This document shows, piece by piece, positions 2,126 through 50,386 of a DNA stretch of 64,000 bases. Under the pieces are notes generated by a model. The model was not told where the DNA came from, did not search any database, and worked only from the letters and a program-made list of their open reading frames with translations. The position numbers were made by a program, and so were the translations under genes. Position 1 is the stretch's first letter. The number at the start of each line of letters is the position of its first letter. Source of the DNA: Planctomycetaceae bacterium (GTDB taxonomy: Bacteria; Planctomycetota; Planctomycetia; Pirellulales; UBA1268); contig CANFQO010000002.1 in NCBI GenBank assembly GCA_947449135.1, positions 86,045-150,044 of the forward strand, in the 5' to 3' direction.

Positions 2126-4891
2126 ATGAAGTGGAATGTGCTCGACGCGGTATTCAAGCGAAACTTCGTCGCTTATTTTTCCAACCCCACCGGCTATGTC
2201 TTCATCTGCGTCTTCGTGCTGCTGGGATCGCTGGCGGCGTTCTGGCCGCCGGAGTTCTTCAACTCCAACCTCGCGAATCTCGATCAGCTCAACCGCTACC
2301 TGCCCTACATCCTGCTGGTATTCATTCCCGCCATCACGATGAGCGTGTGGGCCGAGGAGCGACGGCAGGGCACCGATGAACTGCTGCTAACCATTCCCGC
2401 CAGCGACTGGGAGGTGGTGTTCGGAAAATATCTCGCGGCGGTCGGGATCTACACGGTGGCGCTCTTGTTCTCCTGCATCTGCAACCTGGTGATCCTGCTG
2501 TTGTGGGGCACGCCCGACGCCGGCCTGTTGCTCTCAAACTACCTCGGCTACTGGTTTGTTGGCATCGCCATGATCGCCATCGGCGTCGTGGCCAGCTTCC
2601 TCACGAACAACCTGACGGTGGCCTTCATCCTCGGGCTGGCTTTCAATGCACCGCTGGTCGTGGCCGATCAGGCCGGGTCGGTGATGTCGCCGGGGCTGGC
2701 GAAGTGGGTCCGGCCGTGCAGCCTTGCCGAACAGTTCACCGACTTCGGTCGCGGCATCGTCAGCCTCTCAGGGATCGCCTACTTCCTCGGCATCGTGGCC
2801 GTCTGCCTCTACATCGCGATGGTGCTCATCGGTCGCCGCCACTGGACCAGTCGGAGGGATGGCGCAAAGATGGGCGTGCACTTCATCGTCCGGACGCTCG
2901 GCCTCGCCGCTGCGGCCGTTGGCGTGGTCATGTTCTTCCGCGGCATGGATGTTCGTGCCGATCTCTCCGAGGAACGGATCAGCTCGCTCTCCCCCGACAC
3001 CCGGCGGTTGCTCCGCGAGCTTGAAACCAGCCGTCCGATCGACATCAAGGCCTACGTCAGTCCGACCGTGCCGGAGGACTACACGCAGACGCGGCTGAAC
3101 CTCCTCAACATGCTGCGTCAGTTTCAGCAGCTCGGCCGTGGCAAGGTCAACGTCGAGGTGATCTCCACCGATCCCAAGACCGAGGCCGCGTCGCTCGCCT
3201 CGCAGCAGTTCGGCATCGAGCCGGTGAGCGTGCTGTCGCGGGTCCGCGGTGCCTATCGCGACGAGAACATTTTTCTTGGCTGTGCCTTCACGAGCGGCCT
3301 CGAGAAGGTGGTGGTGCCTTTTTTCGACAAGGGCACGCCCGTCGAATACGAGCTCGTCCGCTCGATCTGCACGGTCGCCCAGCAGAAGCGAAAGCGGCTC
3401 GGAGTTCTCACGACAGACGCCGATCTTTTCGGCGGCTTCGACATGGCCACCGGCCAGCAGCGGCCGCGGCAGCCGGTGCTTGAAGAACTTGAGAAGCAGT
3501 ACGACGTGGTGCAGGTCGATGCGTCGGCGCCGATCACCGACCGCTACGACGTGTTGCTCGCCGTGCAGCCGTCGTCTCTCGGGCCAGAGCAGATGAACCA
3601 CTTCGTGTCCGCTGTTCGCGCGGGCCAGCCGGTGGCGGTCTTCGAAGACCCGCTGCCGGTGCTGATGCAGGGGGTGCCGGGCACGTTGCAGCCCCGGCGT
3701 GGCCCGGGCGGTCCGATGGCGATGTTTCAGCCGCAGCAGCAGCCCAAGGGCGACATCGGCCAGCTGTGGGAGACGCTTGGCCTCAAGCTCATGGCCCCAG
3801 CCGGCCGTCCAGCCATGGGGCAGACAGGCTCCGATCCGCTCATCGTCTGTCAGGATTACAACCCACATCCAAAGCTCGAGCTTCCCGATGAATTTGTCTT
3901 CATCGACTCGAACCTGACGTCTGATGCCTCGGGGAAAATCCCCGGGTTCAACGCCCGACAGCCGATCACAGCGGGGCTACAAGAGGTGCTCTTCCCGTTT
4001 CCGGGAGCCCTCGTCAAGGACGACAAGGCCAACGTCGCCTGGACGCCGCTGGTGCAGACGGGTCTCTTCACCGGAACGATCGAAGTTGACCAGGTGATGG
4101 GAAACCGCGGCGACATGCGGCAGTTGCAGATCTTCGAGAAGCAGGCAAAGCAGTCGATGGTGCTGGCTGTGGCGATCGAAAGGCAGCCCGCAGCGGGCGC
4201 GGCCGAGGCCGGAGCCGAACCGGTGAAGGCCGAGGGAGCAGCCTCGAAGCCGATCCGCGCCGTCGTCGTCTCCGACATCGACCTCATGGACGGCCGAATC
4301 TTCGGCCTCCGCAACCGGCCAGATGAGGTGTTTGGGCTCAACTTCGACAACGTCACGTTCGTGCTCAACATCCTCGACTCGTTGGCGGACGACGACCGCT
4401 TTCTCGAGATTCGCAAACGAAAGCCGAAGCACCGCACGCTCGAGCGCATTGAAGACACCGTGGCCACCGCGCGTGAAATGGCAGACAGTGAGCGGCAGAA
4501 GTTCATCGCCGAATTCGACGAGGCGGAGCGGGCGGCGAATGATTCGATGCAGGCGGAAGTCGGCGAGTTCGAGAAGAAGATCAAGGAGATGGAGACAGCG
4601 GGCGATGCCGATCCGCAGGCCGCCATGCAGGCGGTGCAGCAACTCGCCAGCAGGCAGCGGCTCTCGCAGCGTCGACTCGATACCAAGATCGAGACACTCA
4701 AGCGAAAGCGGGACACCGAGGTCGAGGCGGTGGAACGTCAATTGGAGTCGAAAATCCGCAAGGAGCAGGACCGGCAAAAGTGGCTGGCCGTACTCCTGCC
4801 GCCGATCCCGCCGCTGGTCGTTGCCTTCTTCGTCTATTTCCGGCGTCGTGCGCTGGAGCGCGAAGGCGTAGCCAAGACGCGGCTGCGGTGA
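2126..4891 (+). CDS. Fused ABC-2 permease (GldF-like) and GldG-like auxiliary domain, with C-terminal coiled coil and TM anchor
   Basis: The N-terminal ~270 aa has multiple hydrophobic segments typical of ABC-2 permeases. The rest resembles GldG-type auxiliary proteins and ends in a Glu/Lys/Arg-rich coiled coil and a final TM (WLAVLLPPIPPLVVAFFVYF). ATG 2126 is preceded by AAGGACGGA. Family names are from memory. Confidence 0.7.
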   Translation: MKWNVLDAVFKRNFVAYFSNPTGYVFICVFVLLGSLAAFWPPEFFNSNLANLDQLNRYLPYILLVFIPAITMSVWAEERRQGTDELLLTIPASDWEVVFGKYLAAVGIYTVALLFSCICNLVILLLWGTPDAGLLLSNYLGYWFVGIAMIAIGVVASFLTNNLTVAFILGLAFNAPLVVADQAGSVMSPGLAKWVRPCSLAEQFTDFGRGIVSLSGIAYFLGIVAVCLYIAMVLIGRRHWTSRRDGAKMGVHFIVRTLGLAAAAVGVVMFFRGMDVRADLSEERISSLSPDTRRLLRELETSRPIDIKAYVSPTVPEDYTQTRLNLLNMLRQFQQLGRGKVNVEVISTDPKTEAASLASQQFGIEPVSVLSRVRGAYRDENIFLGCAFTSGLEKVVVPFFDKGTPVEYELVRSICTVAQQKRKRLGVLTTDADLFGGFDMATGQQRPRQPVLEELEKQYDVVQVDASAPITDRYDVLLAVQPSSLGPEQMNHFVSAVRAGQPVAVFEDPLPVLMQGVPGTLQPRRGPGGPMAMFQPQQQPKGDIGQLWETLGLKLMAPAGRPAMGQTGSDPLIVCQDYNPHPKLELPDEFVFIDSNLTSDASGKIPGFNARQPITAGLQEVLFPFPGALVKDDKANVAWTPLVQTGLFTGTIEVDQVMGNRGDMRQLQIFEKQAKQSMVLAVAIERQPAAGAAEAGAEPVKAEGAASKPIRAVVVSDIDLMDGRIFGLRNRPDEVFGLNFDNVTFVLNILDSLADDDRFLEIRKRKPKHRTLERIEDTVATAREMADSERQKFIAEFDEAERAANDSMQAEVGEFEKKIKEMETAGDADPQAAMQAVQQLASRQRLSQRRLDTKIETLKRKRDTEVEAVERQLESKIRKEQDRQKWLAVLLPPIPPLVVAFFVYFRRRALEREGVAKTRLR

Positions 4892-7893: not shown

Positions 7894-8922
7894 ATGTCCG
7901 ACATTCTTACTTCGCCCAGGAGGTCCCGATTCGGTCGGGCCATGGGCTTCCGGCTGGCCGGCATCGGCAGTAGCGTGCCGTCGAATGTGGTGACGAATGC
8001 CGATCTGGCCAGGCTCGGCTGTGATCCCGAATGGATCGTTGCCCGCACGGGCATCCATGAGCGCCGGTGTGCACCGCCGGAGATGGCCACCAGCGACTTG
8101 GCCGCCATGGCCGGCAGGGCTGCGCTCGCTCATGCCACGGCCGCGGACGTCGACCTGCTCGTCCTCGGCACGTTCACGCCTGACATGTGCATCCCCTCCA
8201 CCGCCTGCATCGTGCAGGAGAAGTTGGGGCTCGACGCGCCGGCAATGGACGTGACCGCCGCCTGCGCAAGCTTTGCCTATGCACTGGTGACCGCAGCGAA
8301 TTTCCTCTCAGCCGGATCGAGCCGGTTGGCGCTCGTGCTGGGCGCCGACACGAATTCGCGAGTCGTCGATCCCGAGGACATCAAGACGTGGCCTCTCTTC
8401 GGCGATGGGGCAGGCGCGGTGTTGCTCGAGGCGGTTCCGCCCGATAGTTCTGGGCAGGAGCATGGATTGCTTGCCTTCTCGCTCGGTTCAGACGGCCGCG
8501 GCGCGGGCCTGCTCGCCTGCCCGATGAGCGGTTCCCGGCAGCCGGTCACGGCCGAGGGCCTGTCACGGCGGGAACAGTTCATGCGAATGGATGGCCGCGC
8601 GGTGTTCAAGTGGGCGATTCGGCTGGCAGAGGAAAATATCCGTCAGGTGGTCGAGAGGTCGGGCGTGGCGATGGAGGCGATCGATCTCTTCGTGTTGCAC
8701 CAGGCCAACGCCCGGATCATCGATGGGGCCCGCGAAGCCCTCGGCATATCCTCCGACCGCTTCCTGGTGAATCTCGACCGCTATGGAAACACGTCGAGCG
8801 GCTCGATTCCGCTCGCGATGGACGAGGCCTGGCGTACCGGCCGGATCGGGCCGGGCAGCACGATCGTGGTCTGTGGCTTCGGCGGCGGACTGGCCTGGGG
8901 CAGCGCGGTGTGGAGGTTATGA
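7894..8922 (+). CDS. fabH: 3-oxoacyl-ACP synthase III (KAS III)
   Basis: Catalytic residue contexts C (TAACASFAYAL), H (VLHQANARI) and N (YGNTSSGSIPL). Length 342 aa. It starts 19 nt after the desaturase stop. Confidence 0.85.
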   Translation: MSDILTSPRRSRFGRAMGFRLAGIGSSVPSNVVTNADLARLGCDPEWIVARTGIHERRCAPPEMATSDLAAMAGRAALAHATAADVDLLVLGTFTPDMCIPSTACIVQEKLGLDAPAMDVTAACASFAYALVTAANFLSAGSSRLALVLGADTNSRVVDPEDIKTWPLFGDGAGAVLLEAVPPDSSGQEHGLLAFSLGSDGRGAGLLACPMSGSRQPVTAEGLSRREQFMRMDGRAVFKWAIRLAEENIRQVVERSGVAMEAIDLFVLHQANARIIDGAREALGISSDRFLVNLDRYGNTSSGSIPLAMDEAWRTGRIGPGSTIVVCGFGGGLAWGSAVWRL

Positions 8923-8941
8923 CGGTCGCACGTCGTGGGCC

Positions 8942-9080
8942 GGGGCTGCCCGTGCCCCATCGCCGGACGTTCGCTACGGCCATCCTGGCCTCCGCTCACT
9001 CGATGCTGACTGCGCTCCGGCATCCATGCCTGCGCTGGTCAGCAACGCCGGCTCCCGGGACACGGGCAGCCCCTCACGGA
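8942..9080 (+). repeat. Structured intergenic repeat, copy 1
   Basis: Arms GGGGCTGCCCGTG (8942-8954) and CACGGGCAGCCCC (9061-9073) are perfect reverse complements. The internal core is near-identical to the copies at 30793, 39365(-) and 49016. Confidence 0.8.
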
Positions 9081-9132: not shown

Positions 9133-10947
9133 ATGGTTGACGTGAATGGTGCGGTGAAGAGGCTGCCGGCGCGGGGCGACGTGGCCGTGGGAGATACATG
9201 GGATCTCAGCAGTCTGTTTTCGTCTGATGTCGCATGGTCGGCAGCATTGGCCGAGTGGGAGAAGCGGATTCCGGGGTTTGCGGCATTCGCCGGCACGCTC
9301 GGTTCGTCGCCCGAGCGGCTTGCGGAGTGTCTGGCCTACGACCTGAGCGTCGACCGCGAGGGGGACAGGCTTGGCACCTATGCCCACCTGCGGGCCAGTG
9401 AGGACCAGGCGGCTGCGGACCCGCAGCGGATGACGGGTCGCTTCCAGCATGTCGCCACGCTGGCCGGCGAGAAGGCCAGTTTCATTCGCCCAGAGATCAT
9501 GGCGATCCCGCCCGAAACGCTCTCGGCGTGGATGAAGCTTCCCGTGCTCGCCGACTACCGACTGCTCCTTGAACGGCTGACGCGAACGCGGCCGCACGTG
9601 CTCTCGGAGCCGGAGGAAAAACTGTTGGCAATGCAGGGTAGCTTTGCCGGCACCGCGGGAAAGGTATTCAGGCAGTTGACCGACGCCGATATGAAGTTCG
9701 GCAGCGTGACCACCGGCGATGGAAATCAGATTGAACTGTCGAATGCGACGTTCGTGACACTCCTGCACGACAGTTCGCGGGAGGTGCGACGAACGGCCTT
9801 TCAGCAGTATTACGCCCAGTACGAAGCCCACGCCAACACGCTGGCCGCCACCCTGTCTGGCTCCAACGAGCGCGATGTCTATGCGGCAAAAGTCCGGCGT
9901 TACCCGAGCGCCGTCGAGGCGGCCCTGTTTGCCGACAACGTGCCGATCGCCGTATACGATCAGCTGATCACGGCAGTCCACGCCCACCTGCCCGCCGTCC
10001 ACCGGTATTACGACCTGAGAAAGCGGATTCTCGGGCTCGAAGACATCCACCACTACGACTGCTATGTGCCGCTGGTGCCTGAACTCGAGCAACGACACAG
10101 CTGGAACGACGCGGTGCGGGTGGTGATCGAATCGCTTGCCCCGCTCGGGGCTGATTACAGCACGCAGTTGGAGCGCGGATTGCTTGGCCGCTGGTGTGAC
10201 CGCTACCCCAATGCGGGCAAGCAGTCGGGCGCCTTCAGTTCGGGCACCTATGACTCCGACCCCTACATCCTGATGAATTTCCAGGAGGAGGCGATCGAGC
10301 ATGTATTCACGCTTGCGCACGAGGCGGGCCACTCGATGCACACACGGTATTCGGCCGAAGCCCAGCCCTACCACTACTCCGGCTACACGATCTTCGTCGC
10401 GGAGGTGGCCAGCACGTTCAACGAACAGCTGCTGACGCGGCTCTTGCTCACGCGGGCGACATCGGCCAAAGAACGGGCTGCGATCATTGCGCGGGAGATC
10501 GACTCCATCCGCGCCACGATCGTGAGGCAGACGATGTTCGCGGAGTTCGAGCGGAAGAGCCATGCCTCGGCCGAGGCAGGCGAGCCGCTCACGCTGGAAC
10601 GGCTCAGGACGATCTACCGTGAACTGCTCGACGCCTACTTCGGCCCGCGGTTTGCCATCGACAAGCAACTGGAACTTGAGTGCCTCCGCATCCCGCACTT
10701 CTACAACGCTTTCTACGTCTACAAGTATGCCACCGGCCTGTCGGCAGCGATCACGCTGGCCAAGCGGGTGGCCGAGGGGGGAGAGAAGGAGCTCGAGGCC
10801 TATCTGGCGTTCCTCAAGGGCGGCTGCTCGAAGTGGCCGCTTGATCTGCTCCGCGATGCGGGCGTGGATCTTGAGAAGCCGGAACCGGTGGCGATCGCGC
10901 TGACGCGGTTCAGCGAACTCGTCGACGAATTGGGGACCCTGCTGTAG
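9133..10947 (+). CDS. pepF: Oligoendopeptidase F (M3B family)
   Basis: Zinc motif HEAGHSMH, 604 aa, M3B-like layout. A GAGGTGA SD lies just upstream of ATG 9133. Confidence 0.85.
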   Translation: MVDVNGAVKRLPARGDVAVGDTWDLSSLFSSDVAWSAALAEWEKRIPGFAAFAGTLGSSPERLAECLAYDLSVDREGDRLGTYAHLRASEDQAAADPQRMTGRFQHVATLAGEKASFIRPEIMAIPPETLSAWMKLPVLADYRLLLERLTRTRPHVLSEPEEKLLAMQGSFAGTAGKVFRQLTDADMKFGSVTTGDGNQIELSNATFVTLLHDSSREVRRTAFQQYYAQYEAHANTLAATLSGSNERDVYAAKVRRYPSAVEAALFADNVPIAVYDQLITAVHAHLPAVHRYYDLRKRILGLEDIHHYDCYVPLVPELEQRHSWNDAVRVVIESLAPLGADYSTQLERGLLGRWCDRYPNAGKQSGAFSSGTYDSDPYILMNFQEEAIEHVFTLAHEAGHSMHTRYSAEAQPYHYSGYTIFVAEVASTFNEQLLTRLLLTRATSAKERAAIIAREIDSIRATIVRQTMFAEFERKSHASAEAGEPLTLERLRTIYRELLDAYFGPRFAIDKQLELECLRIPHFYNAFYVYKYATGLSAAITLAKRVAEGGEKELEAYLAFLKGGCSKWPLDLLRDAGVDLEKPEPVAIALTRFSELVDELGTLL

Positions 10948-10968
10948 GGCAGGGGGTGTCGCCCGAAC

Positions 10969-18633: not shown

Positions 18634-18684
18634 GCACCATCCCACGTGCTATGCCAGTCCGGGAAAAGCCCAACGACCCGGTGT

Positions 18685-18712
18685 CCCCGGACTTCCGTCC
18701 GGGGCTTTTTGT
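18685..18712 (+). terminator. Intrinsic terminator downstream of lptD-like gene
   Basis: CCCCGGAC-TTCC-GTCCGGGG stem-loop (18685-18704) followed by CTTTTTGT, 52 nt after the stop codon. Confidence 0.6.
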
Positions 18713-18746
18713 CACGAATGACGTTACCGTCGGTGGTGGCGTGCCC

Positions 18747-18778
18747 AGAAACAAGAAGCCCCCGGCGGGAGCCGGGGG
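18747..18778 (-). terminator. Intrinsic terminator downstream of the minus-strand permease gene
   Basis: On the minus strand, CCCCCGGC-TCCC-GCCGGGGG is followed by CTTCTTGTTTCT. The hairpin begins 20 nt after the stop at 18798. Confidence 0.55.
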
Positions 18779-18797
18779 ACTCCGGGTGAGAAGCGGC

Positions 18798-30022: not shown

Positions 30023-30123
30023 GATTGCCCGGGCAGAATACGCAAGGGCCGGCTGGGCTGGCGGCGGGCAGGCCGGAATTCTATGGTTCCCGCCGCTGGT
30101 TTCCGGCCGCGAAGGACCATTCC

Positions 30124-30759
30124 ATGCCTATCAAACCCCGTTCTTTCTGCGGGCATTCCGCCAGATTCTACGGCTGTCTTCTGGCTCTGGCCACGGTGGC
30201 TCTGGCCACGGGTTGTGTGCAGCGGCGGATGACGATTCGCAGCAACCCGCCGGGAGCGCTTGTCTACGTCGACGACTACCAGATCGGCACCACGCCGGTA
30301 TCAACCGACTTCATCTATTACGGCACGCGGAAGATTCGGCTGGTGAAGGACGGCTACGAAACGCTGACGGTGCGGCAGCCGTTCCCAATTCCGTGGTACG
30401 AAATTTTTCCGCTCGACTTCGTGACGGAAAACCTCTGGCCGTGGGAGATTCGCGACGAGCGGATCGTCGATCTCGCCATGACAAACACTTCCGCCATTCC
30501 GCCGGAGATCGTCGTGGCACGGGCCGAGCAGGCCCGGCTTGCCGCAGGCAGTCTGCCCGCCCCGCCGCCAGTGCCCGTCGTGCAGCAGCCGGTGGCTCCA
30601 CGGCCGATTCCGGCGCCGCCGCCCCAGTCGCTTCCAGCACCGCAGCAGTTGCCGCCACAGGGCGGTGGGCTGGTGCTGCCACCGCCGTCGCCTGCTCCAT
30701 TTCAGGGACTGCAGCCGCCGCTGCAAAACGCGCCGACCCAGGGCATCCCGGGACTGTAG
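30124..30759 (+). CDS. PEGA-domain lipoprotein with Pro/Gln-rich C-terminus
   Basis: Lipobox LATGC after a signal peptide, and a PEGA-like IRSNPPGALVYVDDYQIGTTP ... RLVKDGYETL. ATG 30124; ORF-track start 30025 is rejected. Confidence 0.65.
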   Translation: MPIKPRSFCGHSARFYGCLLALATVALATGCVQRRMTIRSNPPGALVYVDDYQIGTTPVSTDFIYYGTRKIRLVKDGYETLTVRQPFPIPWYEIFPLDFVTENLWPWEIRDERIVDLAMTNTSAIPPEIVVARAEQARLAAGSLPAPPPVPVVQQPVAPRPIPAPPPQSLPAPQQLPPQGGGLVLPPPSPAPFQGLQPPLQNAPTQGIPGL

Positions 30760-30792: not shown

Positions 30793-30944
30793 CTGGCGAC
30801 GGTTCGGGGCTGCCCATGCCCCGTCGCCGGACGTTCGCTACGGCCATCCTGGCCTTCGCTCACTCGATGCTGACTGCGTTCCGACATCCTGTCTCCACTT
30901 GTCAGCAACGCCGGCTCCCGGGCCATGGGCAGCCCCTCACGGAT
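30793..30944 (+). repeat. Structured intergenic repeat, copy 2 (best-preserved reference copy)
   Basis: Arms GGGGCTGCCCATG (30806-30818) and CATGGGCAGCCCC (30924-30936). The left flank CTGGCGACGGTTC is shared with copy 3, and the right flank TCACGGA is shared with copies 1 and 3. Confidence 0.85.
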
Positions 30945-31080
30945 TCATCAAGGCACAGAGGGCCACATCGTTAGGCCCGGAGGGCCGGGTTAGCACCAGC
31001 CGACGGAGGTCGGCCAAGCGACGGTCGGCACGATGCCGAGCCGTCGCGTGTATACGGTCTCTCCATGGCATAATGCCTCC

Positions 31081-32400
31081 ATGACAGTCCCGTCATCCTT
31101 CTCAGCGTCGTCCTCCCGCGAGCAGCTCGATGCCCTCAAGCTCGAGCGGCTCCGGGCGCTCGTGCGGGAGATCGTGCCGCATAACCGGTTTTATGCCGCC
31201 AAGCTTAAGCGGGTGTCGCCCGAATTGCCGTCACTCGATGCGCTTCAAGACTGGCCGTTTACCTTCAAGGAAGAGCTGGTAGGTGCGGCCGCTGCGACGG
31301 GCCTCCCTGGAAATCTCACCTGGTCTTCCGATCGCTACGTGCGGTTTCACCAGACCAGCGGCACGCACGGTCGGCCGTTGCCCGTCTTCGACACGGCCGA
31401 TGACTGGGCGTGGTGGATGGCCTGCTGGCAATTGATCCTCGAGCGCGGCGCGGTGCGGTCTGGTGATCGGGTACTCGTGGCTTCCTCGTTCGGTCCCTAC
31501 GTGGGCTTCTGGAGCTGTTTCGACGCGGTGCTCACGCGGCAGGCGATGGCGATTCCCACCGGGGGCATGACGTCGCTGGCGCGGCTGGAACTGGCACGCT
31601 CTCTGGGCGCGACCGTGTTGGTGGCCACGCCCAGCTACAGCCTCCATCTCGCCGAGGTCGCTTCTGAACACAAGCTTGATCTGGAGCACCTGAATGTTCG
31701 ACTTGTGATCGTGGCGGGAGAGCCGGGCGGTTCTGTGCCCGCGGTGCGGGCTCGCATCGGGGCGGCCTGGGGAGCGGAAGTGCTCGATCATGCTGGCGCG
31801 ACGGAAGTGGGGCCGTGGGGCGTGGGCGATCTGGCGGGTCGCGGCCTCGACGTGATTGAGCCATGGTTTCACGCCGAGTTTTTGAGCGTGGAAACGGGTC
31901 GGGCGGCAGGGCCTGGCGAACTCTCCGAATTGGTGCTGACAACGCTCGGCCGCGCGGGCGCGCCTGTGATTCGTTACCGCACCGGCGACCTCGTGCGGCC
32001 CCGCTGGCCCAAGGCCGAGGAGATCGCGGCAGGGGGGTGCCCGTGGGTCCGACTCGAGGGGGGAGTCGTCGGACGGGCCGATGACATGCTCGTGGTTCGC
32101 GGCGTGAATATTTTTCCCGGGGCGATCGACGACATCGTGCGCAGCTTTCCCGAGGTCGTCGAATATCGGCTCACGGCATCCACGCGTGAAAGCCTCGATG
32201 TGTTGCATCTTGAAATCGAGGATCGGCTTTCCGACCCGGGGCGCATCGCCCGCGAAATGCAGTTGCGGCTCGGTTTGCGGGTGGAGGTGACGGCGGTTCC
32301 CAGCGGCAGCCTGCCGCGATTCGAGGGCAAGGCACGGCGGATCGTCGATCGCCGCAGTGCGACACCAGCAGAACAGCAGCCATCAGAAAGGCAGTCATGA
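31081..32400 (+). CDS. Phenylacetate-CoA ligase family protein (PaaK / F390-synthetase-like adenylate-forming enzyme)
   Basis: N-terminal LERLRALVREIVPHNRFYAAKL, a P-loop-like FHQTSGTHGRPLPV, and later YRTGD. ATG 31081. Confidence 0.75.
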   Translation: MTVPSSFSASSSREQLDALKLERLRALVREIVPHNRFYAAKLKRVSPELPSLDALQDWPFTFKEELVGAAAATGLPGNLTWSSDRYVRFHQTSGTHGRPLPVFDTADDWAWWMACWQLILERGAVRSGDRVLVASSFGPYVGFWSCFDAVLTRQAMAIPTGGMTSLARLELARSLGATVLVATPSYSLHLAEVASEHKLDLEHLNVRLVIVAGEPGGSVPAVRARIGAAWGAEVLDHAGATEVGPWGVGDLAGRGLDVIEPWFHAEFLSVETGRAAGPGELSELVLTTLGRAGAPVIRYRTGDLVRPRWPKAEEIAAGGCPWVRLEGGVVGRADDMLVVRGVNIFPGAIDDIVRSFPEVVEYRLTASTRESLDVLHLEIEDRLSDPGRIAREMQLRLGLRVEVTAVPSGSLPRFEGKARRIVDRRSATPAEQQPSERQS

Positions 32401-36754: not shown

Positions 36755-39199
36755 ATGCCCGTTTCCTTTCCCGCCGTGCCCTACGTCCCGCGTCCGCTGC
36801 CGGCACCGTCGACTGACGAGCCGCCGCGATTCACCGCTCGCACGCTCGAGGGCCTTGAATGGATTCTCGCGCGGGAGCTTGAGCGGGTGGGGGCCCAGGA
36901 TCTCCGCATCGGCCGACGGACGATCGAGTTTTCCGCTGCTCCGGGCATGGAAAAAGAAACGCTCTACCGGGCTGTGCTCGAGAGCAGGACGGCAATCCGG
37001 GTGCTCGAGCCGCTCGGACGGTTTCGTGTCGACTCCCCCGATTCGCTCTATCACGCGATGCAGGAGGTCGACTGGACCGAACAGTTGAAGACGAGCGAGA
37101 CCCTCCGTGTCGACGCCGCGATCCACGATACGTTTCTCACGCACTCGCTCTACGCCGCCCAGATCGTCAAGGATGCGATCGTTGACCAGCTCCGCACACC
37201 CAGCGGCAAACGTCCCAGCGTGCAGCTCAGAGGGGCGACGCTCCGGTTGGGGCTCCATCTGGTGGGCGACACCGCGACGATCTTCCGGGATGCGGCCGGC
37301 CGATCGCTTCACCAGCGGGGCTGGCGGATGGGGGAGGTCGACGCGCCGCTCTCGGAGGTGTTGGCGGCCGGCATTCTCGCCATCACAGGCTGGTGGCGTG
37401 CCGGCGAGCACACCGAGGCGTTGTCAAGCGGCGAGCCATTGTTAGACCCGATGTGTGGCTCCGGTACGCTTGTGATCGAGGCGGCGACGATTGCGGCCGG
37501 TATCGCACCGGGGCTCTATCGCGCGCGGCGGAAGGCTCACGGCTTCTATCGGTTTCGCGACTGCGACCGCGGCCTGTTCGATCGGCTGGTGGCGGAATTG
37601 GAAGCACGCGTTCGGGAGCCGGAGGCCCGCTTTCAAGCAAGCGATCTCGATCCTCAGGCGGTGGCCGCGGCGAAGGCCTGCGCCGAGGCTGCCGGTGTGT
37701 CTTCAGGCATCGCGATCGACGTGCAACACTTCGAGCAGGCCAGACCTGCCGGTGAGAGCGGATTGGTGGTCACGAATCCGCCCTACGGCGAACGCCTGCC
37801 GCTGCCACGGGCTGCCGCCTTCTTCAGGCGGTTCGGCGACTGGCTGGTACAGCATTGCGGTGGGTGGCGGGCTGCGATTCTCGCCGCCGACACGCCGGCG
37901 GCCGGCCAACTCGGCCTGCGTCCGACCTATCGTGTGCCGCTGTATAACGGCCCGATCGCGTGTCGATTGCTGGAAGTGGAGATCAGAAGGCGAGAAGAAC
38001 CGGCACAGCCAACCGCCCACGCCCCACATCCCCCGGGAGACACAGGCACCTCCGATGCTGAGCGACGGGATCGGCGGAAGCTCGACGAGCGTTGGAGCTT
38101 TCGCCCTGAAGAGGAAGGCGGCTCTGCTACGGGTGACGGCGAAAGATCCCCGCAAGGAGACTTCTGCCGTCCCGGCGACAATACGCCCGGCGAGATGTCT
38201 CCTCCCAGACACGCTCCGCTACCGCACCGAAGCGGCCGCACGACCGACGATCAGATTGGCGACTTCCGCCGCCGGCTCGCCAAACGTTTCAAGCATCTCT
38301 CCAAGTGGGCGCGGCGGCAGGGGATCGAGGCGTTTCGAGTCTATGACCGCGACATCCCCGAGATCCCGCTGGTCATCGACTGGTATGCCGGCTGGCTGCA
38401 TGCGGCGGAATACGAGCGGCCACACGACCGCACCGACATCGAGCACGACGTCTGGCTCGACAAGATGATCGAGGCCGCGGCGATGGAAATGGGAGTGCCG
38501 GCAACGCAGACGTTTCTGAAGATGCGCCGGCGGCAGCGTGACGGCGGTCAGTATGAAAAGGTCGATCAGCGACAGGCGGTGCTGTCCGTGAAGGAGGGAG
38601 ATCTCGTGTTCGAGGTCAACCTCTCCGACTACCTCGACACGGGACTGTTCCTCGACCACCGGCAGACGCGGTCCATGGTCCGCGGCGAGGCCGCCGGTAA
38701 ACGGATGCTCAATCTCTTCTGCTACACCGGCAGCTTTTCTGTCTATGCGGCTGCAGGCGGGGCCAAGGAAACGGTGAGTGTCGATCTCTCGAACACCTAT
38801 CTCGACTGGACGCGGACGAACCTCGCGAAGAACGGCTTCAAGGACGCTGGCCGCCACCGGATCGTGCGGGACGAGGCCCGGGCCTTTCTCGAGCATCGGG
38901 CCAACCGCGGCGAGCCGCCCTTCGACATCGTCGTGGTCGATCCGCCGACCTACTCGCGGTCGGCGAAGAGCGAGACGCCCTGGGACGTCGAACGCGACCA
39001 CGCTGAGTTGCTGGAACTGGTGGCGAAGAATCTCTCTCCCGGTGGCGTCGTCTACTTCTCGACCAACTTTCGCCGATTTCATCTCGCTGAGGAGCGGCTG
39101 TCGGCCCTCTACACCTTCCGCGAGATCACCAACCGTACGATCCCCGAGGATTTCAGGAACGAACGGATTCACAGAGCGTGGCGGCTGGTGAAGCGGTAG
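36755..39199 (+). CDS. rlmL: Bifunctional 23S rRNA methyltransferase RlmKL-like (THUMP + two SAM-MTase domains)
   Basis: N-terminal THUMP-like region, a UPF0020 MTase with VVTNPPYGERL, and a C-terminal class I MTase (LNLFCYTGSFSVYAA, VVVDPPTYS). A ~90-aa low-complexity linker lies between the halves. Confidence 0.75.
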   Translation: MPVSFPAVPYVPRPLPAPSTDEPPRFTARTLEGLEWILARELERVGAQDLRIGRRTIEFSAAPGMEKETLYRAVLESRTAIRVLEPLGRFRVDSPDSLYHAMQEVDWTEQLKTSETLRVDAAIHDTFLTHSLYAAQIVKDAIVDQLRTPSGKRPSVQLRGATLRLGLHLVGDTATIFRDAAGRSLHQRGWRMGEVDAPLSEVLAAGILAITGWWRAGEHTEALSSGEPLLDPMCGSGTLVIEAATIAAGIAPGLYRARRKAHGFYRFRDCDRGLFDRLVAELEARVREPEARFQASDLDPQAVAAAKACAEAAGVSSGIAIDVQHFEQARPAGESGLVVTNPPYGERLPLPRAAAFFRRFGDWLVQHCGGWRAAILAADTPAAGQLGLRPTYRVPLYNGPIACRLLEVEIRRREEPAQPTAHAPHPPGDTGTSDAERRDRRKLDERWSFRPEEEGGSATGDGERSPQGDFCRPGDNTPGEMSPPRHAPLPHRSGRTTDDQIGDFRRRLAKRFKHLSKWARRQGIEAFRVYDRDIPEIPLVIDWYAGWLHAAEYERPHDRTDIEHDVWLDKMIEAAAMEMGVPATQTFLKMRRRQRDGGQYEKVDQRQAVLSVKEGDLVFEVNLSDYLDTGLFLDHRQTRSMVRGEAAGKRMLNLFCYTGSFSVYAAAGGAKETVSVDLSNTYLDWTRTNLAKNGFKDAGRHRIVRDEARAFLEHRANRGEPPFDIVVVDPPTYSRSAKSETPWDVERDHAELLELVAKNLSPGGVVYFSTNFRRFHLAEERLSALYTFREITNRTIPEDFRNERIHRAWRLVKR

Positions 39200-39245
39200 G
39201 TGGGGGGGTGTCGCTCCGGGCTTTTCGTTCGGCGTAGGCAAGAAG

Positions 39246-39265
39246 CCCCGGACGGAAGTCCGGGG
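39246..39265 (-). terminator. Hairpin module (minus-sense copy of the 18.7-kb terminator hairpin)
   Basis: CCCCGGAC-GGAA-GTCCGGGG is the exact reverse complement of the stem-loop at 18685-18704. On the minus strand it is followed by CTTCTTGCC. Confidence 0.4.
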
Positions 39266-39328
39266 ACTCCGGTTTGTTGGGCGAGCCCGGCTGTACATGG
39301 CAAGCAGGATGGTGTTCATACCCGGAGT

Positions 39329-39355
39329 CCCCCGGCTCCCGCCGAGGGCTTTTAT
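39329..39355 (+). terminator. Hairpin module with U-tail (plus-sense), likely terminator for rlmKL
   Basis: CCCCCGGC-TCCC-GCCGAGGG (one mismatch) followed by CTTTTAT and preceded by the conserved ACCCGGAGT flank. Confidence 0.45.
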
Positions 39356-39364
39356 GGGAGACCC

Positions 39365-39593
39365 ATCCGTGAGGGGCTGCCCATGGCCCGGGAGCCGGCG
39401 TTGCTGACCAGCGTAGGCAAGAGATTGGGAGCCGTGCTCTGCACGGCTCTTGTAAGCCGGAGCCGACGCCGGGACGGCGGCGACGGCGCGACAGCCGCCA
39501 GCCGAAGCGCAGTCAGCATCGAGTGAGCGAAGGCCAGGATGGCCGTAGCGAACGTCCGGCGACGGGGCACGGGCAGCCCCGAACCGTCGCCAG
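39365..39593 (-). repeat. Structured intergenic repeat, copy 3 (inverted, expanded apex)
   Basis: The plus strand shows ATCCGTGA-GGGGCTGCCCATG (39365-39385) and CACGGGCAGCCCC-GAACCGTCGCCAG (39568-39593). Its reverse complement matches the core of copies 1 and 2. The apex is 103 nt versus 26-27 nt in copies 1 and 2. Confidence 0.85.
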
Positions 39594-47115: not shown

Positions 47116-48252
47116 ATGCTCTGGGTCGCCTGGAAAATGCTGATCGGAAACCGGGTGAAATACCTCGGTATCGTGTTTGGCGTGATGTTCGCAGCTCTTT
47201 TGATCGCGCAGCAGTCGTCGATCTTCTGCGGGCTGATGTCGCTCACCGTCAGCCAGATCCGCGACGTGGAAGGGCCCGGCATCTGGGTCATGGACAAAAA
47301 CGTCCAGTTCATCGACGACATCAAGCCACTGGCCGACACATGCCTGTTTCGCGTCAAGGGAGTGTCCGGTGTCGAGTGGGCGGTGCGGTTTTACAAGGGC
47401 CTTGCCCGGGCGCGGATGGAGGAGGGTGACTACCATCAGATGATCCTCCTGGGCATGGACGACGCCACGCTGGTCGGCGCACCGCAGGGAGTCTTCATGG
47501 GGTCGATCGCCGACCTTCGCAAGCCTGACGCGGTGATCATGGACGACGCCGGCTACCAGTTGATCTGGCCGGGTGAGCCGTACCGTCTCGGGCGAGTGTT
47601 CGAAATGAACGACCGTCGCGCGGTGCTTGTGGGCCTCACCAAAGCCCTTCGCACGTTCCAGAGTTTCCCCATCATCTACACGCGATACAGCCAAGCGGTG
47701 CTGTTTGCGCCGCCTGAGCGAAAGGTGCTCTCCTTCGTGCTGGCGCAGCCGCAACCTGGCACGGATCCGCAGGAGATCTGCCGGCGGATCGAGGAGCAGA
47801 CCGGCCTTCAGGCCCTCACCCGCAATCAGTTCATCTGGAAGACAATCCACCATTTTCTGATGAAGACCGGCATCCCGGTCAATTTTGCGATCACCGTGTT
47901 CCTCGGGTTTCTGGTGGGGACGGCGATTGCAGGTCAGACCTTCTATCTCTTTACCGTCGAAAACATCCGCCAGTTTGGTGCCCTCAAGGCGATGGGTACG
48001 AGCAACTGGACGATCCTGCTGATGGTGCTCTCGCAGGCCGTGCAGGTGGGCCTGGTGGGTTACGGCATCGGCGTCGGGCTGGCGGCGCTCTTCGGCTGGG
48101 GCAGCCGCGGCTTTACGAAGCTCGCCTTCTTCATGCCCTGGCAGGTGCTGGCCATCACCGCCGTGGCGGTATTTTTCATCGTGCTGCTGGCGAGCCTGCT
48201 CTCGATCCGCAAGGTGCTCGTGGTCGATCCGGCGATTGTGTTCCGCGGGTGA
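47116..48252 (+). CDS. ABC exporter permease, FtsX/DevC-like
   Basis: N-terminus MLWVAWKMLIGNRVKYLGIVFGV, a large extracytoplasmic loop, and C-terminal FtsX-type TM helices. It is followed by a DevA-like ATPase. Confidence 0.7.
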   Translation: MLWVAWKMLIGNRVKYLGIVFGVMFAALLIAQQSSIFCGLMSLTVSQIRDVEGPGIWVMDKNVQFIDDIKPLADTCLFRVKGVSGVEWAVRFYKGLARARMEEGDYHQMILLGMDDATLVGAPQGVFMGSIADLRKPDAVIMDDAGYQLIWPGEPYRLGRVFEMNDRRAVLVGLTKALRTFQSFPIIYTRYSQAVLFAPPERKVLSFVLAQPQPGTDPQEICRRIEEQTGLQALTRNQFIWKTIHHFLMKTGIPVNFAITVFLGFLVGTAIAGQTFYLFTVENIRQFGALKAMGTSNWTILLMVLSQAVQVGLVGYGIGVGLAALFGWGSRGFTKLAFFMPWQVLAITAVAVFFIVLLASLLSIRKVLVVDPAIVFRG

Positions 48253-49004
48253 GTCCGATGTTCAAGACAAACGTTATGACAAGCTCCCGCACCACCGTCG
48301 CCGCCGATACTCCTGACGTGGCGGTGCACGTGCGCGGCGTCACGAAGGAGTTTGGGACCGGCGGTTCGCTGACCCGGGCTCTGCGGGGCGTCGATCTCGA
48401 CGTTTCCTACGGCGAACTCCTCATCCTCGCGGGCCCCAGCGGCTGTGGGAAGACGACACTGGTCTCGATCGTGGCGGGTACGCTCGAACCGTCGGCCGGC
48501 GATGTGGTGGTGCTGGGCAAGGATCTGGTGGCGATGAGCAACGGCCGCAAGGTGCGGTTTCGCCGCGAGAACGTCGGCTTTGTCTTTCAGTCCTACAACC
48601 TTCTGCCGGCACTCACTGCCGCGGAGAATGCCGCCGTGCCGCTTCTGATCGCCGGCTGGCACCGGTCGCGGGCCGTCGAGGCGGCAAGCGAGGTGCTCGA
48701 TAAGCTTGGCCTCGGCGACCGATTGGCGAATCTGCCGAGCGAACTCTCCGGCGGTCAGCAGCAGCGGGTGGCGATCGCCCGGGCGCTGGTGCATGGACCC
48801 CGGCTGCTCGTCTGCGACGAGCCGACGAGTGCCCTCGATGCGGAGAACGGCCGGATCACGATGGAGCTGATCTCGAACATCGCCGTGCAGCCCGACCGGG
48901 CCGTGATCGTGGTCACGCACGACTCGCGGGTCTATTCGTTCGCCGACCGAATCGCGACGATGGAGGACGGCCGCATCGAGAGCGTGGAAGCAGGGCCTGC
49001 CTAG
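48249..49004 (+). CDS. ABC exporter ATP-binding protein (DevA/MacB-NBD-like)
   Basis: Walker A GPSGCGKTT, signature LSGGQQQRVAIARAL, Walker B LLVCDEPTSALD. GTG 48249 overlaps the permease stop (GTGA); ATG 48258 is an alternative. Confidence 0.85.
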   Translation: MSPMFKTNVMTSSRTTVAADTPDVAVHVRGVTKEFGTGGSLTRALRGVDLDVSYGELLILAGPSGCGKTTLVSIVAGTLEPSAGDVVVLGKDLVAMSNGRKVRFRRENVGFVFQSYNLLPALTAAENAAVPLLIAGWHRSRAVEAASEVLDKLGLGDRLANLPSELSGGQQQRVAIARALVHGPRLLVCDEPTSALDAENGRITMELISNIAVQPDRAVIVVTHDSRVYSFADRIATMEDGRIESVEAGPA

Positions 49005-49015
49005 CGGGCCGTGCC

Positions 49016-49152
49016 GGGGTTTTCCCGTACCGTATCGCTGGACGTTCGCTGGGCCCATCCTGGCCTTCGCTCTCTCGATGCTGACGACGCTCCGGCATCC
49101 TGCCTGCGTTTGTCAGCAACGCCGGCTTCACGGCACGGGCAACCGCTCGCGG
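49016..49152 (+). repeat. Structured intergenic repeat, copy 4 (degenerate)
   Basis: The core GGACGTTCGCTGGGCCCATCCTGGCCTTCGCTCTCTCGATGCTGAC ... TTTGTCAGCAACGCCGGCTTCACGGCACGGGCAACCGC aligns to copies 1-3 with several substitutions. The terminal arms are only partly complementary. Confidence 0.6.
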
Positions 49153-49228
49153 CTTCCGTGGTCGAGCGGGCTTCAGCCCAGGAATGCTCGAATGGACCCA
49201 CCATCGAGACTTTTCGTACATTAGTGCT

Positions 49229-50386
49229 ATGGCTTCCGTTCACACCGACACGTCCGCCGACCCCACGGCATCTGTTGCTCCGCCGCGCCGCCGTGCGGAA
49301 CGGCGACGGACGTTCGCCGACTTCCTCACGCAATACGTGTTGCCACTCGTGGCCTTGGCAATGCTGGGATTCGCCGGCTGGTATGTCGCGAAGACCCGCC
49401 CCATCACCAACAACCCACCGCCGCCGATCGAACCGGCACGCAGCCCCTATGCCGCCACGCTCGCGGCGGCCGGCATCGTCGAGGCGCAGACGGAGAACAT
49501 CTCCGTGGGCTCCGCCACACCCGGGGTCGTGGTGCAGGTGCTTGTGAAGGTGGGCGACGCGGTGACGGCGGGCCAGCCGCTCTTCCGGCTCGACGACCGG
49601 CAACTGCAGGGCGAACTGGCTGTGAAGCGGGCGATGGTCTCGCAGGAGAAGAGCGAGTTGATCCGGCTCGAGGCTGAGCCGCGCAAGGAAAAGATTCCGG
49701 TCATCGTGGCCCAGGTCAACGAGGCCAGGACGGCGGTGATCCGTGAGGCCGACGCCCTGAAACGCACCGAGGAAACCTTTGCTCGCAAGGTCACCACCGA
49801 GCAGGAGTTGATAGCGCGGCGGGAGGCTCTTGCTGGTGCGCAGGCCAAACTCGACAAGTCTCAGGCTGATCTCGACCTGCTCAAGGCCGGTTCCTGGCAG
49901 TATGACCGCGATGTTGTCAGCGAGTCGATCACTAAGGCGGAGGCGGATGTGGCCAAGGCCGAGATTGAACTGGATCGACTGGTCGTGCGTGCGCTCGTGG
50001 CCGGGGAGGTGCTCCAGGTGAAGGTGCGACCGGGTGAGTTTGTCGGTACGCCGCCGAACCAGCCGTTGGTGATCCTCGGCAACATCGAGACGCTGCATGT
50101 GCGTGTCGACATCGACGAGTTCGACATCCCGCGTTTCCGCAGCGAGTTGCCAGCCACGGCGGTGCCGCGTGGCAATCTCCAGGTGCGGTATCCGCTGAAG
50201 TTCGTCCGCGTGGAGCCGTTTGTCATTCCGAAGAAGTCGCTCACCGGCGAAAACACCGAGCGTGTCGACACCCGCGTGCTCCAGGTGATCTACGAATTCG
50301 ACCCGGTCGGCCTGCCGCCCCTTTTCGTCGGGCAACAGGTGGAGGTCTTCATCGACGCGGGGACACCGCCCGCCCCGGGGGCGTAA
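49229..50386 (+). CDS. HlyD-family periplasmic adaptor (DevB-like)
   Basis: N-terminal TM (YVLPLVALAMLGFAGWYV), a barrel-sandwich/lipoyl-type segment (VVVQVLVKVGDAVTAGQPLFRLD), a coiled coil and a beta-barrel domain. ATG 49229. Confidence 0.75.
   Translation: MASVHTDTSADPTASVAPPRRRAERRRTFADFLTQYVLPLVALAMLGFAGWYVAKTRPITNNPPPPIEPARSPYAATLAAAGIVEAQTENISVGSATPGVVVQVLVKVGDAVTAGQPLFRLDDRQLQGELAVKRAMVSQEKSELIRLEAEPRKEKIPVIVAQVNEARTAVIREADALKRTEETFARKVTTEQELIARREALAGAQAKLDKSQADLDLLKAGSWQYDRDVVSESITKAEADVAKAEIELDRLVVRALVAGEVLQVKVRPGEFVGTPPNQPLVILGNIETLHVRVDIDEFDIPRFRSELPATAVPRGNLQVRYPLKFVRVEPFVIPKKSLTGENTERVDTRVLQVIYEFDPVGLPPLFVGQQVEVFIDAGTPPAPGA

Follow-up and report, generated by a model that had tools for sequence, protein, structure and literature searches.

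A structured palindromic intergenic repeat of freshwater Planctomycetota, a probable counterpart of the REP/REPIN, ERIC and MITE elements

Interspersed palindromic repeats are well studied in Proteobacteria. Among them, the ERIC (or IRU) sequences of Enterobacteriaceae and Vibrio are imperfect palindromes of ~127 bp that lie between genes in either orientation, are likely transcribed, and are conserved across many species; we know of no transposase associated with them. Here, we describe an intergenic repeat found in a 64,000-nt stretch of DNA (the window, to which all positions refer) from a Planctomycetaceae bacterium (assembly GCA_947449135.1, contig CANFQO010000002.1, positions 86,045–150,044 of the forward strand). 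The unit is ~140 nt long, or ~165 nt including its conserved flanks, and a single strand of it folds into a compact three-way-junction (branched) hairpin that is maintained by compensatory changes. In habit, the repeat is closest to ERIC and REPIN. It shares with ERIC the similar size, the long imperfect palindrome, the intergenic location in either orientation, a well-conserved sequence in many species, the lack of a known associated transposase, and the occurrence of internal insertion and deletion variants (copy c3 below, and L047, L077, and L005, where L-numbers denote public genome or metagenome loci). Unlike ERIC, it belongs to another phylum, has an unrelated sequence, and carries an asymmetric side arm that interrupts the palindrome and thereby creates the three-way junction; moreover, covariation and strand asymmetry are documented here across at least 49 species. 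The element is probably a non-autonomous, structured palindromic intergenic repeat, the planctomycete counterpart of the REP/REPIN, ERIC, Correia, and MITE elements. The family was found nowhere in the literature or in Rfam as searched; the kind itself (REP/REPIN/ERIC/MITE-like) is already known.

The window (65% G+C) contains four copies. They had been listed in an earlier note made from the sequence alone, which drew the element in one orientation (hereafter the drawn orientation). With the extents determined here, and with the scores of the covariance model R1, the copies are:

8938–9080, + strand: copy c1, full-length, drawn orientation on +, between fabH (7894–8922) and pepF (9133–10947); 175 bits.
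8942–8958, + strand: arm of the outer stem P1 of c1, pairing with 9057–9073.
30793–30944, + strand: copy c2, the copy singled out in the earlier note, full-length, between a PEGA-domain gene (30025–30759) and an AMP-binding gene (31033–32400); 168 bits.
39365–39593, − strand: copy c3, drawn orientation on −, between an RlmL-like methyltransferase gene (36755–39199) and a LIV-type binding-protein gene; 89 bits.
49012–49152, + strand: copy c4, between an ABC ATPase gene (48249–49004) and an HlyD-type gene (49184–50386); 132 bits, fold z −3.3.

The window was scanned with R1, with filters off. Apart from antisense echoes of c1 and c2, the next-best score was 13 bits; because nothing else exceeded this value, the number of copies in the window is four, with no degenerate ones left undetected. 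The four sequences, read at the positions listed in the earlier note, were alignable over ~140 nt and formed the top direct and inverted families of a repeat finder run on the window. The left-core 27-mer and the right-core 22-mer were each found at these four window sites only (up to three mismatches), with none expected in shuffles. Both the copies and their shared left and right cores are thus as first described, except that conserved sequence runs past the element ends given then (left ..TGGCSRCGGTTC, right TCACGGAT). Copy c4 is a diverged or partly decayed member of another subfamily (P1b CCGT/ACGG type). The apex of c3 (P5 loop) holds a 77-nt insertion at ~39424–39500, which contains a perfect hairpin GAGCCGTGC-AGA-GCACGGCTC, is missing from the orthologous copy in L054, and has no second copy in the window or in any sampled locus. 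The copies are spaced irregularly along the window, where many spacers are without one.

The fold was analyzed in two alignments, A2 (98 distinct copies) and A7 (39 copies, ascertained differently). The outer stem runs from P0 (2 bp) through a TC/TC loop and P1 (17 bp) to P2 (5 bp, GCCGG/CCGGC), after which it divides into two arms. The side arm, P3, consists of 2 bp, a TC/TC loop, 2 bp, a 3 × 3 loop, 5 bp, and a TCC hairpin loop. The apical arm, P4–P5, begins with CG-A-TGCTGACT and ends in the apex GGCA-TCC(N)-TGCC; its 3′ strand is contiguous with P2, on which the arm is stacked. In c2, these parts are located as follows:

30806–30822, + strand: 5′ arm of P1, GGGGCTGCCCATGCCCC, pairing with 30920–30936; as helix 1 of A2, it has 15 of 17 pairs changed on both sides, confirmed in A7.
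30920–30936, + strand: 3′ arm of P1, GGGCCATGGGCAGCCCC, partner of 30806–30822.
30826–30830, + strand: 5′ strand of P2, GCCGG, pairing with CCGGC at 30911–30915; 95–97% paired.
30833–30863, + strand: side arm P3, GT / TC loop / GC / TAC / GGCCA-TCC-TGGCC / TTC / GC / TC loop / AC.
30865–30910, + strand: arm P4–P5, CG-A-TGCTGACT ... GACA-TCC-TGTC ... TGTCAGCA-A-CG, with P5 as the apex.

In A2, 91.6% of the cells were paired, and changes on both sides were observed at 33 of the 47 pairs. Compensatory cells numbered 352, compared to 106 ± 15 in shuffles and 23–69 when the partners were slid by 1–3 columns. When P0 was included (pair composition UA:26, GC:24, CG:18), 35 of 49 pairs were changed on both sides, and the compensatory cells amounted to 396. 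In A7, 91.4% of the cells were paired, 29 of 51 pairs were changed on both sides, and 171 compensatory cells were counted, compared to 53 in the control. Helix 1 (P1 with P0) was 89–91% paired, with 15–17 pairs showing changes on both sides, and in A2 such changes affected 10 of the 14 pairs of helix 5. Exchanges of whole pairs were found in P3b (CG:17/GC:17 in A7; GC/CG and AU/CG in A2) and in P5 (CG:52/GC:38 in A2; GC:20/CG:18 in A7). A7 added a covarying pair between ACG[T/C]TC and CTC[A/G]CTC (CG:17, UA:17), which extends P3 across the second TC/TC loop. Three unpaired blocks were nearly invariant, even outside the search pattern: GGACG(Y)TCGCT, CGCTC(R)CTCGATG, and CATCC, the last in both loops. 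For minimum free energy folds of single copies, z values against shuffles ranged from −3.3 to −7.5 under RNA parameters and from −5.3 to −7.2 under DNA ones, and both DNA strands fold well.

The covariation predicted in the earlier note is therefore strong in two independent alignments, and most of its structural details hold. Its 13-nt inverted ends are real and extend to the 17 bp of P1, plus the 2-bp P0 beyond the TC/TC loop. At the P1 position where it had reported a double change, c1 has G:C, c2 has A:T, and c3 has an intermediate G.T. The side mini-hairpin GGCCA-TCC-TGGCC was recovered, as were the inner pairings GCCGG/CCGGC and GCTGAC/GTCAGC. The proposed pairing CGTT/AACG has to be dropped, as covariation links the CG of AACG to that of CTCGATG (CG:91/GC:5 and GC:69/CG:26 in A2).

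The two strands of the element are not equivalent. The best-folding strand, which bears the structural signal, is the complement of the drawn orientation, a correction to the earlier note. In the drawn orientation, A.C/C.A mismatches numbered 132 and G.T/T.G mismatches 31, with A.C commoner at 28 of the 33 informative pairs. Because an A.C mismatch in this sense is a G.T (or G.U) on the complement, the wobble-compatible mismatches sit on the complement. The unpaired consensus columns are C/T-rich in the drawn sense (C14, T13, A4, G1) and hence rich in purines on the complement. On that strand, each TC/TC loop reads as a tandem G.A/A.G motif, the 3 × 3 loop as GRA/GNA, and both hairpin loops as A(N)GGAU; the P3-arm loops of c2 accordingly read GA/GA, GRA/GNA, and A-GGA-U. 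Of 137 copies, 129 fold more stably on the complement, with a mean difference of 8.9 kcal/mol. The A.C:G.T counts were 41:15 where the mRNA carries the drawn sense and 38:6 where it carries the complement. As the asymmetry is alike in both orientation classes, it is not shaped by local transcripts. We infer that the single-stranded complementary strand belongs to the life cycle of the element itself and is not a by-product of read-through.

Outside the window, a scan of one genome per species with the left-core pattern gave at least 111 loci from at least 49 assemblies (counted by accession prefix). All carriers among the matches listed were uncultured freshwater Planctomycetota, represented by metagenome-assembled genomes (MAGs) with 64–74% G+C. 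Over 744 kb of genome loci, nhmmer found 129 copies, which corresponds to one extra copy per 41 kb beyond the ascertained ones; 33 of the 129 had a locus end no more than 200 nt away, which is what a repeat that breaks assemblies should show. The right-core pattern retrieved 50 more copies in 39 loci from lake metagenomes. In total, public genomes and metagenomes supplied >170 further copies, in line with the high copy number anticipated in the earlier note, and the element is present in >80 independent public assemblies. The density in the window is one copy per 16 kb, which would amount to a few hundred copies per 6–8 Mb genome. Two pattern matches on viral contigs were both rejected by the covariance model. 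No match to Rfam 15 was obtained in the whole window at gathering thresholds, and only chance-level matches (E up to 10) appeared around c2, consistent with the first impression that the element has no named family. Literature searches returned no description of such a repeat in Planctomycetota, and the core sequences gave chance primer matches only.

All copies are intergenic, mostly near gene 3′ ends, with a usual distance of 10–60 nt to the upstream stop codon (genes were called by a simple codon-usage caller written for this analysis). The four window copies lie, as originally noted, in spacers between co-directional plus-strand genes (FabH/PepF, PEGA/AMP-binding, RlmL-like/LIV-binding protein, and ABC ATPase/HlyD), and the three plus-sense copies follow the stop codon at 19 nt (c1), 33 nt (c2), and 11 nt (c4), which is the range of 11–33 nt given before. 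Ten of ten candidate intragenic copies proved to be artefacts of over-extended open reading frame (ORF) starts. The orientation of the element is unbiased relative to transcription: among 113 full copies, 28 were tandem co-oriented, 25 tandem anti-oriented, 17 convergent, and 7 divergent, and a second count on A2 gave 29:29:15:7 in the same order. The element flanks showed no conserved promoter and no terminator-like T-run. Since it lacks a T-run and canonical intrinsic terminators stand next to it within the same spacers, the element is not a terminator. Regarding replication, a GC-skew test for strand bias gave 66:45 (p = 0.06), and neighboring copies on one contig were co-oriented in ~17 cases and not in 15 (hand tally over genome and metagenome loci).

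Orthologous spacers differ between lineages in the presence and orientation of the element. In L054, the c3 spacer holds a copy in the same orientation and ~97% identical, between flanking genes that are 84–88% identical. The FabH–PepF spacer occupied by c1 holds a copy in the same orientation in L235 and L236 (FabH 90% identical), and an inverted one with part of P1 deleted in L036. The convergent spacer between PepF and an M17 aminopeptidase is only 21 nt long and empty in the window (10948–10968); it is filled in one orientation in L235 and L236, and in the other in L058, L076, and L092. In these five loci, the same spacer measures 300–370 nt and holds three repeat kinds, a striking contrast in occupancy between close lineages.

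Two candidate comparisons were rejected. L237, the closest relative found (FabH 98% identical), does not represent an empty site, because its downstream region is a different one, apparently inserted other DNA. Within it, positions 2450–3201 diverge from the window exactly at the expected P1 start, and the unrelated downstream DNA is bounded by ~30-bp inverted repeats CCCTGTGGCGACAAGTTTCCAACTTGTCCG ... CGGACAAGTTGGAAACGTGCCGCCACAGGG; this segment is probably an insertion sequence, with related pieces in L064. L059, L097, L067, and L110 are not an orthologous group, as they carry a longer subfamily with an outer AGTTGAC/GTCAACT extension.

This subfamily, found also in L076 and L092, has an extra outer stem (AGTTGAC/GTCAACT) and a unit of ~230 nt; its outer palindrome reads ..AGTTGAC.C.TGCCCCTCACGAGTTGGCCGCGGTTC on the left and TCACGGATTCTGC.TTCGAAAC..GTCAACTCCA on the right. 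Either the outer stem has grown, or the element has inserted into another palindromic repeat. One MAG carries a genome-specific subfamily with the private flank GTCTTGCGTGGGTC. Internally deleted (e.g., L005), half, and decayed copies persist, and nested insertions were found at three different positions. The sequence CGACCAATCCGCTGAGACGGATCGGTGCCCG, a 31-nt mini-insert with a small hairpin (ATCCG..CGGAT), interrupts three element copies (L047, 1306–1336; L077, 1713–1743; L156, 9066–9096), at different internal positions in L047 and L077. This suggests that the mini-insert may be a tiny mobile sequence in its own right.

As the earlier note had stated for the neighborhood of the copies, there is no transposase: the 40 window ORFs contain no transposase, integrase, reverse transcriptase, or HUH domain. 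Genes between or beside clustered or paired copies in the sampled loci likewise included no transposase, but lipoprotein, sigma-54 activator, LytB, NadA, peroxiredoxin, and similar genes instead. An autonomous parent with the same ends was not found in ~1.5 Mb of sampled loci. Half-element matches were rejected as ends of a longer parent, since they were contig-end truncations, internal deletions (L005), or interrupted copies.

The comparison with REP-type systems is closer in some respects than in others. Like the REPIN and REP–RAYT systems (PMC3116915; PMC3733652), the element is extragenic, reaches an estimated hundreds of copies per genome, and has two inverted GC-rich ends that close a hairpin; it also evolves by compensatory changes, forms genome-specific populations that are maintained in related species, and has no transposase beside its copies. 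In particular, the hairpin is closed by inverted arms of 17 nt, no copy lies within a gene, and the copy number is high. Unlike in REP, no GTAG or CGTC tag is present at the foot of the hairpin, where the element has GGNTC and TCNC (GNGA and GANCC on the complement); a CTAC within P3 sits at a variable column. The ~105-nt spacer between the inverted ends, itself conserved and structured, is a further difference from REPIN. Class 3 Y1 HUH proteins are found mainly in Planctomycetes and Acidobacteria, and the genes encoding them have flanking atypical REP-like structures that can amount to hundreds of copies (PMC6006769). By description only, the element resembles these "REPtron-like" TnpA_Y1 systems in host range, in atypical structures without GT[AG]G, and in copy numbers of up to hundreds; it differs in that a CnGA foot and weak gene-flanking structures are reported there (PMC6006769), and no such gene was found in the sequence sampled here. 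The supplement of that paper contained nothing on class 3 structures.

The element resembles MITEs, including the Correia/NEMIS elements of Neisseria, in having terminal inverted repeats (P1 of 17 bp plus P0), small size, non-coding sequence, high copy number, and lineage-variable presence, and it shares with Correia/NEMIS the co-transcribed hairpins as possible RNase III substrates. Of the features that would make it a proven MITE, no target-site duplication was seen, and no parent insertion sequence sharing its ends turned up in the sampled loci. The fit is also imperfect because a conserved, covarying interior is not expected if only double-stranded terminal repeats are recognized. The termini are truly inverted, in contrast to the PATE elements derived from IS200/IS605, which have subterminal hairpins in direct orientation and insert strand-specifically relative to replication. 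Unlike integron attC sites, the copies are scattered across 40 kb in either orientation, with housekeeping genes around them and no integrase.

The earlier note had offered two readings, a MITE/REP-like element or a structured RNA family. The evidence favors the MITE/REP-like option because of the lack of orientation bias, the differences in presence and orientation at orthologous spacers, the genome-specific subfamilies, the decayed copies, and the nested insertions. The element would multiply within genomes via a strand-specific single-stranded intermediate, the complement of the drawn orientation. This intermediate might be recognized by a trans-acting enzyme encoded elsewhere, the candidate being an HUH/Y1 protein of either the RAYT or the class 3 TnpA_Y1 type. 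The recognition surface on the folded strand may consist of its conserved A(N)GGAU loops together with the tandem G.A motifs. Insertions would persist only where they are harmless, i.e., in 3′ spacers. Because copies are co-transcribed with neighboring genes, the very stable hairpin probably has a side effect on the stability or processing of mRNA 3′ ends.

Several observations weigh against this interpretation. No copy-specific direct repeats that would mark a target-site duplication were seen in the flanks, which are themselves conserved (GGNTC / TCNCGG), so that the true ends cannot be fixed and target-site duplications cannot be defined. None of the compared orthologous loci provided a clean filled-versus-empty pair with alignable flanks. 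For these two reasons, we infer that the element is mobile rather than demonstrate it. An HUH/Y1 motif scan of the window and of the at least 111 genome loci (~0.8 Mb) was negative, which says little for a single-copy gene. A mechanism of the HUH/IS200 type predicts replication-strand bias, and the observed counts of 17:15 and 66:45 (p = 0.06) tend to argue against the classical IS200 type. For a parasite, the element is unusually well conserved: at least 49 species share nearly invariant loops and junctions, also without ascertainment, and the ~97% identity of the orthologous copies c3 and L054 exceeds the 84–88% of the adjacent genes. A host function, or gene conversion among the copies, could account for such conservation. 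Finally, tandem G.A motifs, GNA/GRA loops, GGA loops, and wobble tolerance characterize RNA no less than single-stranded DNA.

Csr/Rsm-binding RNAs are characterized by several GGA motifs in hairpin loops, with the consensus CANGGANG. On the complement of the element, GGA occurs in the P5 loop, CA(N)GGAUG, in the P3 loop, CAGGAUG, and a third time after P5; the resemblance to this consensus is one of sequence only. CsrA itself has been reported in Planctomycetes (PMC4682653); a CsrA motif scan of the ~1.5 Mb of sampled sequence gave no match, which is uninformative for a single-copy gene. These features belong to an explanation in which the repeat is a functional multi-copy structured RNA family, either a cis element in mRNA untranslated regions or a small RNA, with the transcript of the complement as its active form; it could be a platform for a protein such as CsrA, an exonuclease stabilizer, or an RNase III/E processing site. 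Strong covariation, nearly invariant loops and junctions, orthologous copies better conserved than adjacent genes, and the greater stability of the complement (129/137) fit this explanation, as does the RNA-like strand asymmetry, seen in the excess of wobble-compatible mismatches (132:31), the purine-rich loops, and the two tandem G.A loops. We nevertheless regard an RNA family as unlikely. With even orientations relative to the flanking genes (28:25 and 29:29), transcription would produce the wrong sense from half of the copies; the GGA strand is not preferentially transcribed and has no conserved promoter of its own. The mismatch asymmetry is equal in both orientation classes, the flanks have neither promoter nor T-run while canonical terminators stand in the same spacers, and no Rfam match was obtained. 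Moreover, presence and orientation vary at orthologous sites, and decayed, truncated, and interrupted copies persist. A variant of this idea, to which we give a quite low probability, is that the element lives also as RNA and its complement transcript is selected, being either copied back in a SINE-like manner or used as a dispersed docking module for a CsrA-type protein. As RNA, the complement would form a compact three-way junction that bears tandem G.A motifs and GGA in three places, two of which are hairpin loops; repeats with a SINE-like RNA intermediate are, to our knowledge, not established in bacteria.

The repeat might instead act as double-stranded DNA or as a cruciform, as a site for a host protein (a nucleoid-associated protein, gyrase, or an IHF-like protein) that is kept for chromosome organization and spread by recombination rather than transposition; such a role has been proposed for the BIMEs. 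The intergenic placement with unbiased orientation, the highly conserved sequence blocks, the good folding of both DNA strands, and the preserved Watson–Crick pairing with few wobble pairs on either strand are all compatible with it. It gives no reason, however, for the 4:1 asymmetry of A.C over G.T or for the strand-specific purine loops, and a uniform host requirement is contradicted by the genome-specific subfamilies and decayed copies, while the irregular spacing in the window, with many spacers left without a copy, also argues against it. We consider this explanation improbable. The chance that the pattern represents accidental similarity, an assembly artefact, or a known system (integron attC, IS200/IS605 ends, or an Rfam family) is practically negligible: apart from the general abundance of GC-rich palindromes at 65% G+C, nothing favors it, whereas no matches were expected by chance and >80 independent assemblies carry the element. 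The copies are dispersed among housekeeping genes without an integrase or cassette array, the terminal inverted repeats are true ones, unlike IS200/IS605 ends, Rfam was negative, and the two matches on viral contigs failed the covariance model.

What sets this repeat apart is its conserved branched architecture, its strand-specific RNA-like motifs, and its conservation across at least 49 species. The family yields a structural model supported by covariation, along with a working covariance model, and, sampled by decades of lake metagenomes, it offers a natural system for following repeat persistence. The strand-asymmetric, RNA-like architecture provides a handle on what mobilizes repeats without a nearby transposase and on whether class 3 Y1 HUH proteins are REP-type enzymes. 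If the CsrA-type docking module were real, a mobile element would be distributing post-transcriptional control sites across a planctomycete genome. In practical terms, the repeat is a marker that breaks MAG assemblies and exposes mislabelled bins.

Regarding such labels, the repeat was also found on contigs with 64–72% G+C labelled "Candidatus Kuenenia stuttgartiensis," "Ca. Kuenenia sp.," or "Chitinophagaceae" (L004, L009, L012, L030, and ~30 others; L010 and L099). These labels are implausible given the G+C content of the contigs and the presence of a planctomycete repeat, and the taxonomic labels or the binning of those assemblies look wrong. Look-ups of exact proteins left three window proteins without a record.

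Two other small repeats accompany the element. GC-rich hairpins of the form (A)CCCGGAGTCCCCGG..CCGGGGCTTTT are located at 18668–18711, 18752–18792, 39239–39282, and 39315–39351 and resemble face-to-face intrinsic terminators. One pair lies in the convergent spacer 18634–18797 and the other adjoins c3; L235 has the same pair after its main element, and units like these are present in L062, L104, L125, L127, L122, L084, and L201. A further conserved motif of 70–90 nt (GCCCGGAGGGCCGGGTTAGCACCAGCCGACGGAGGTCGGCCAAG...GGCACGATGC), with no Rfam match, lies directly downstream of c2 (30975–31060). It recurs in L181, L084, L017, L062, L019, L065, and L088, often, but not always, adjoining the main element.

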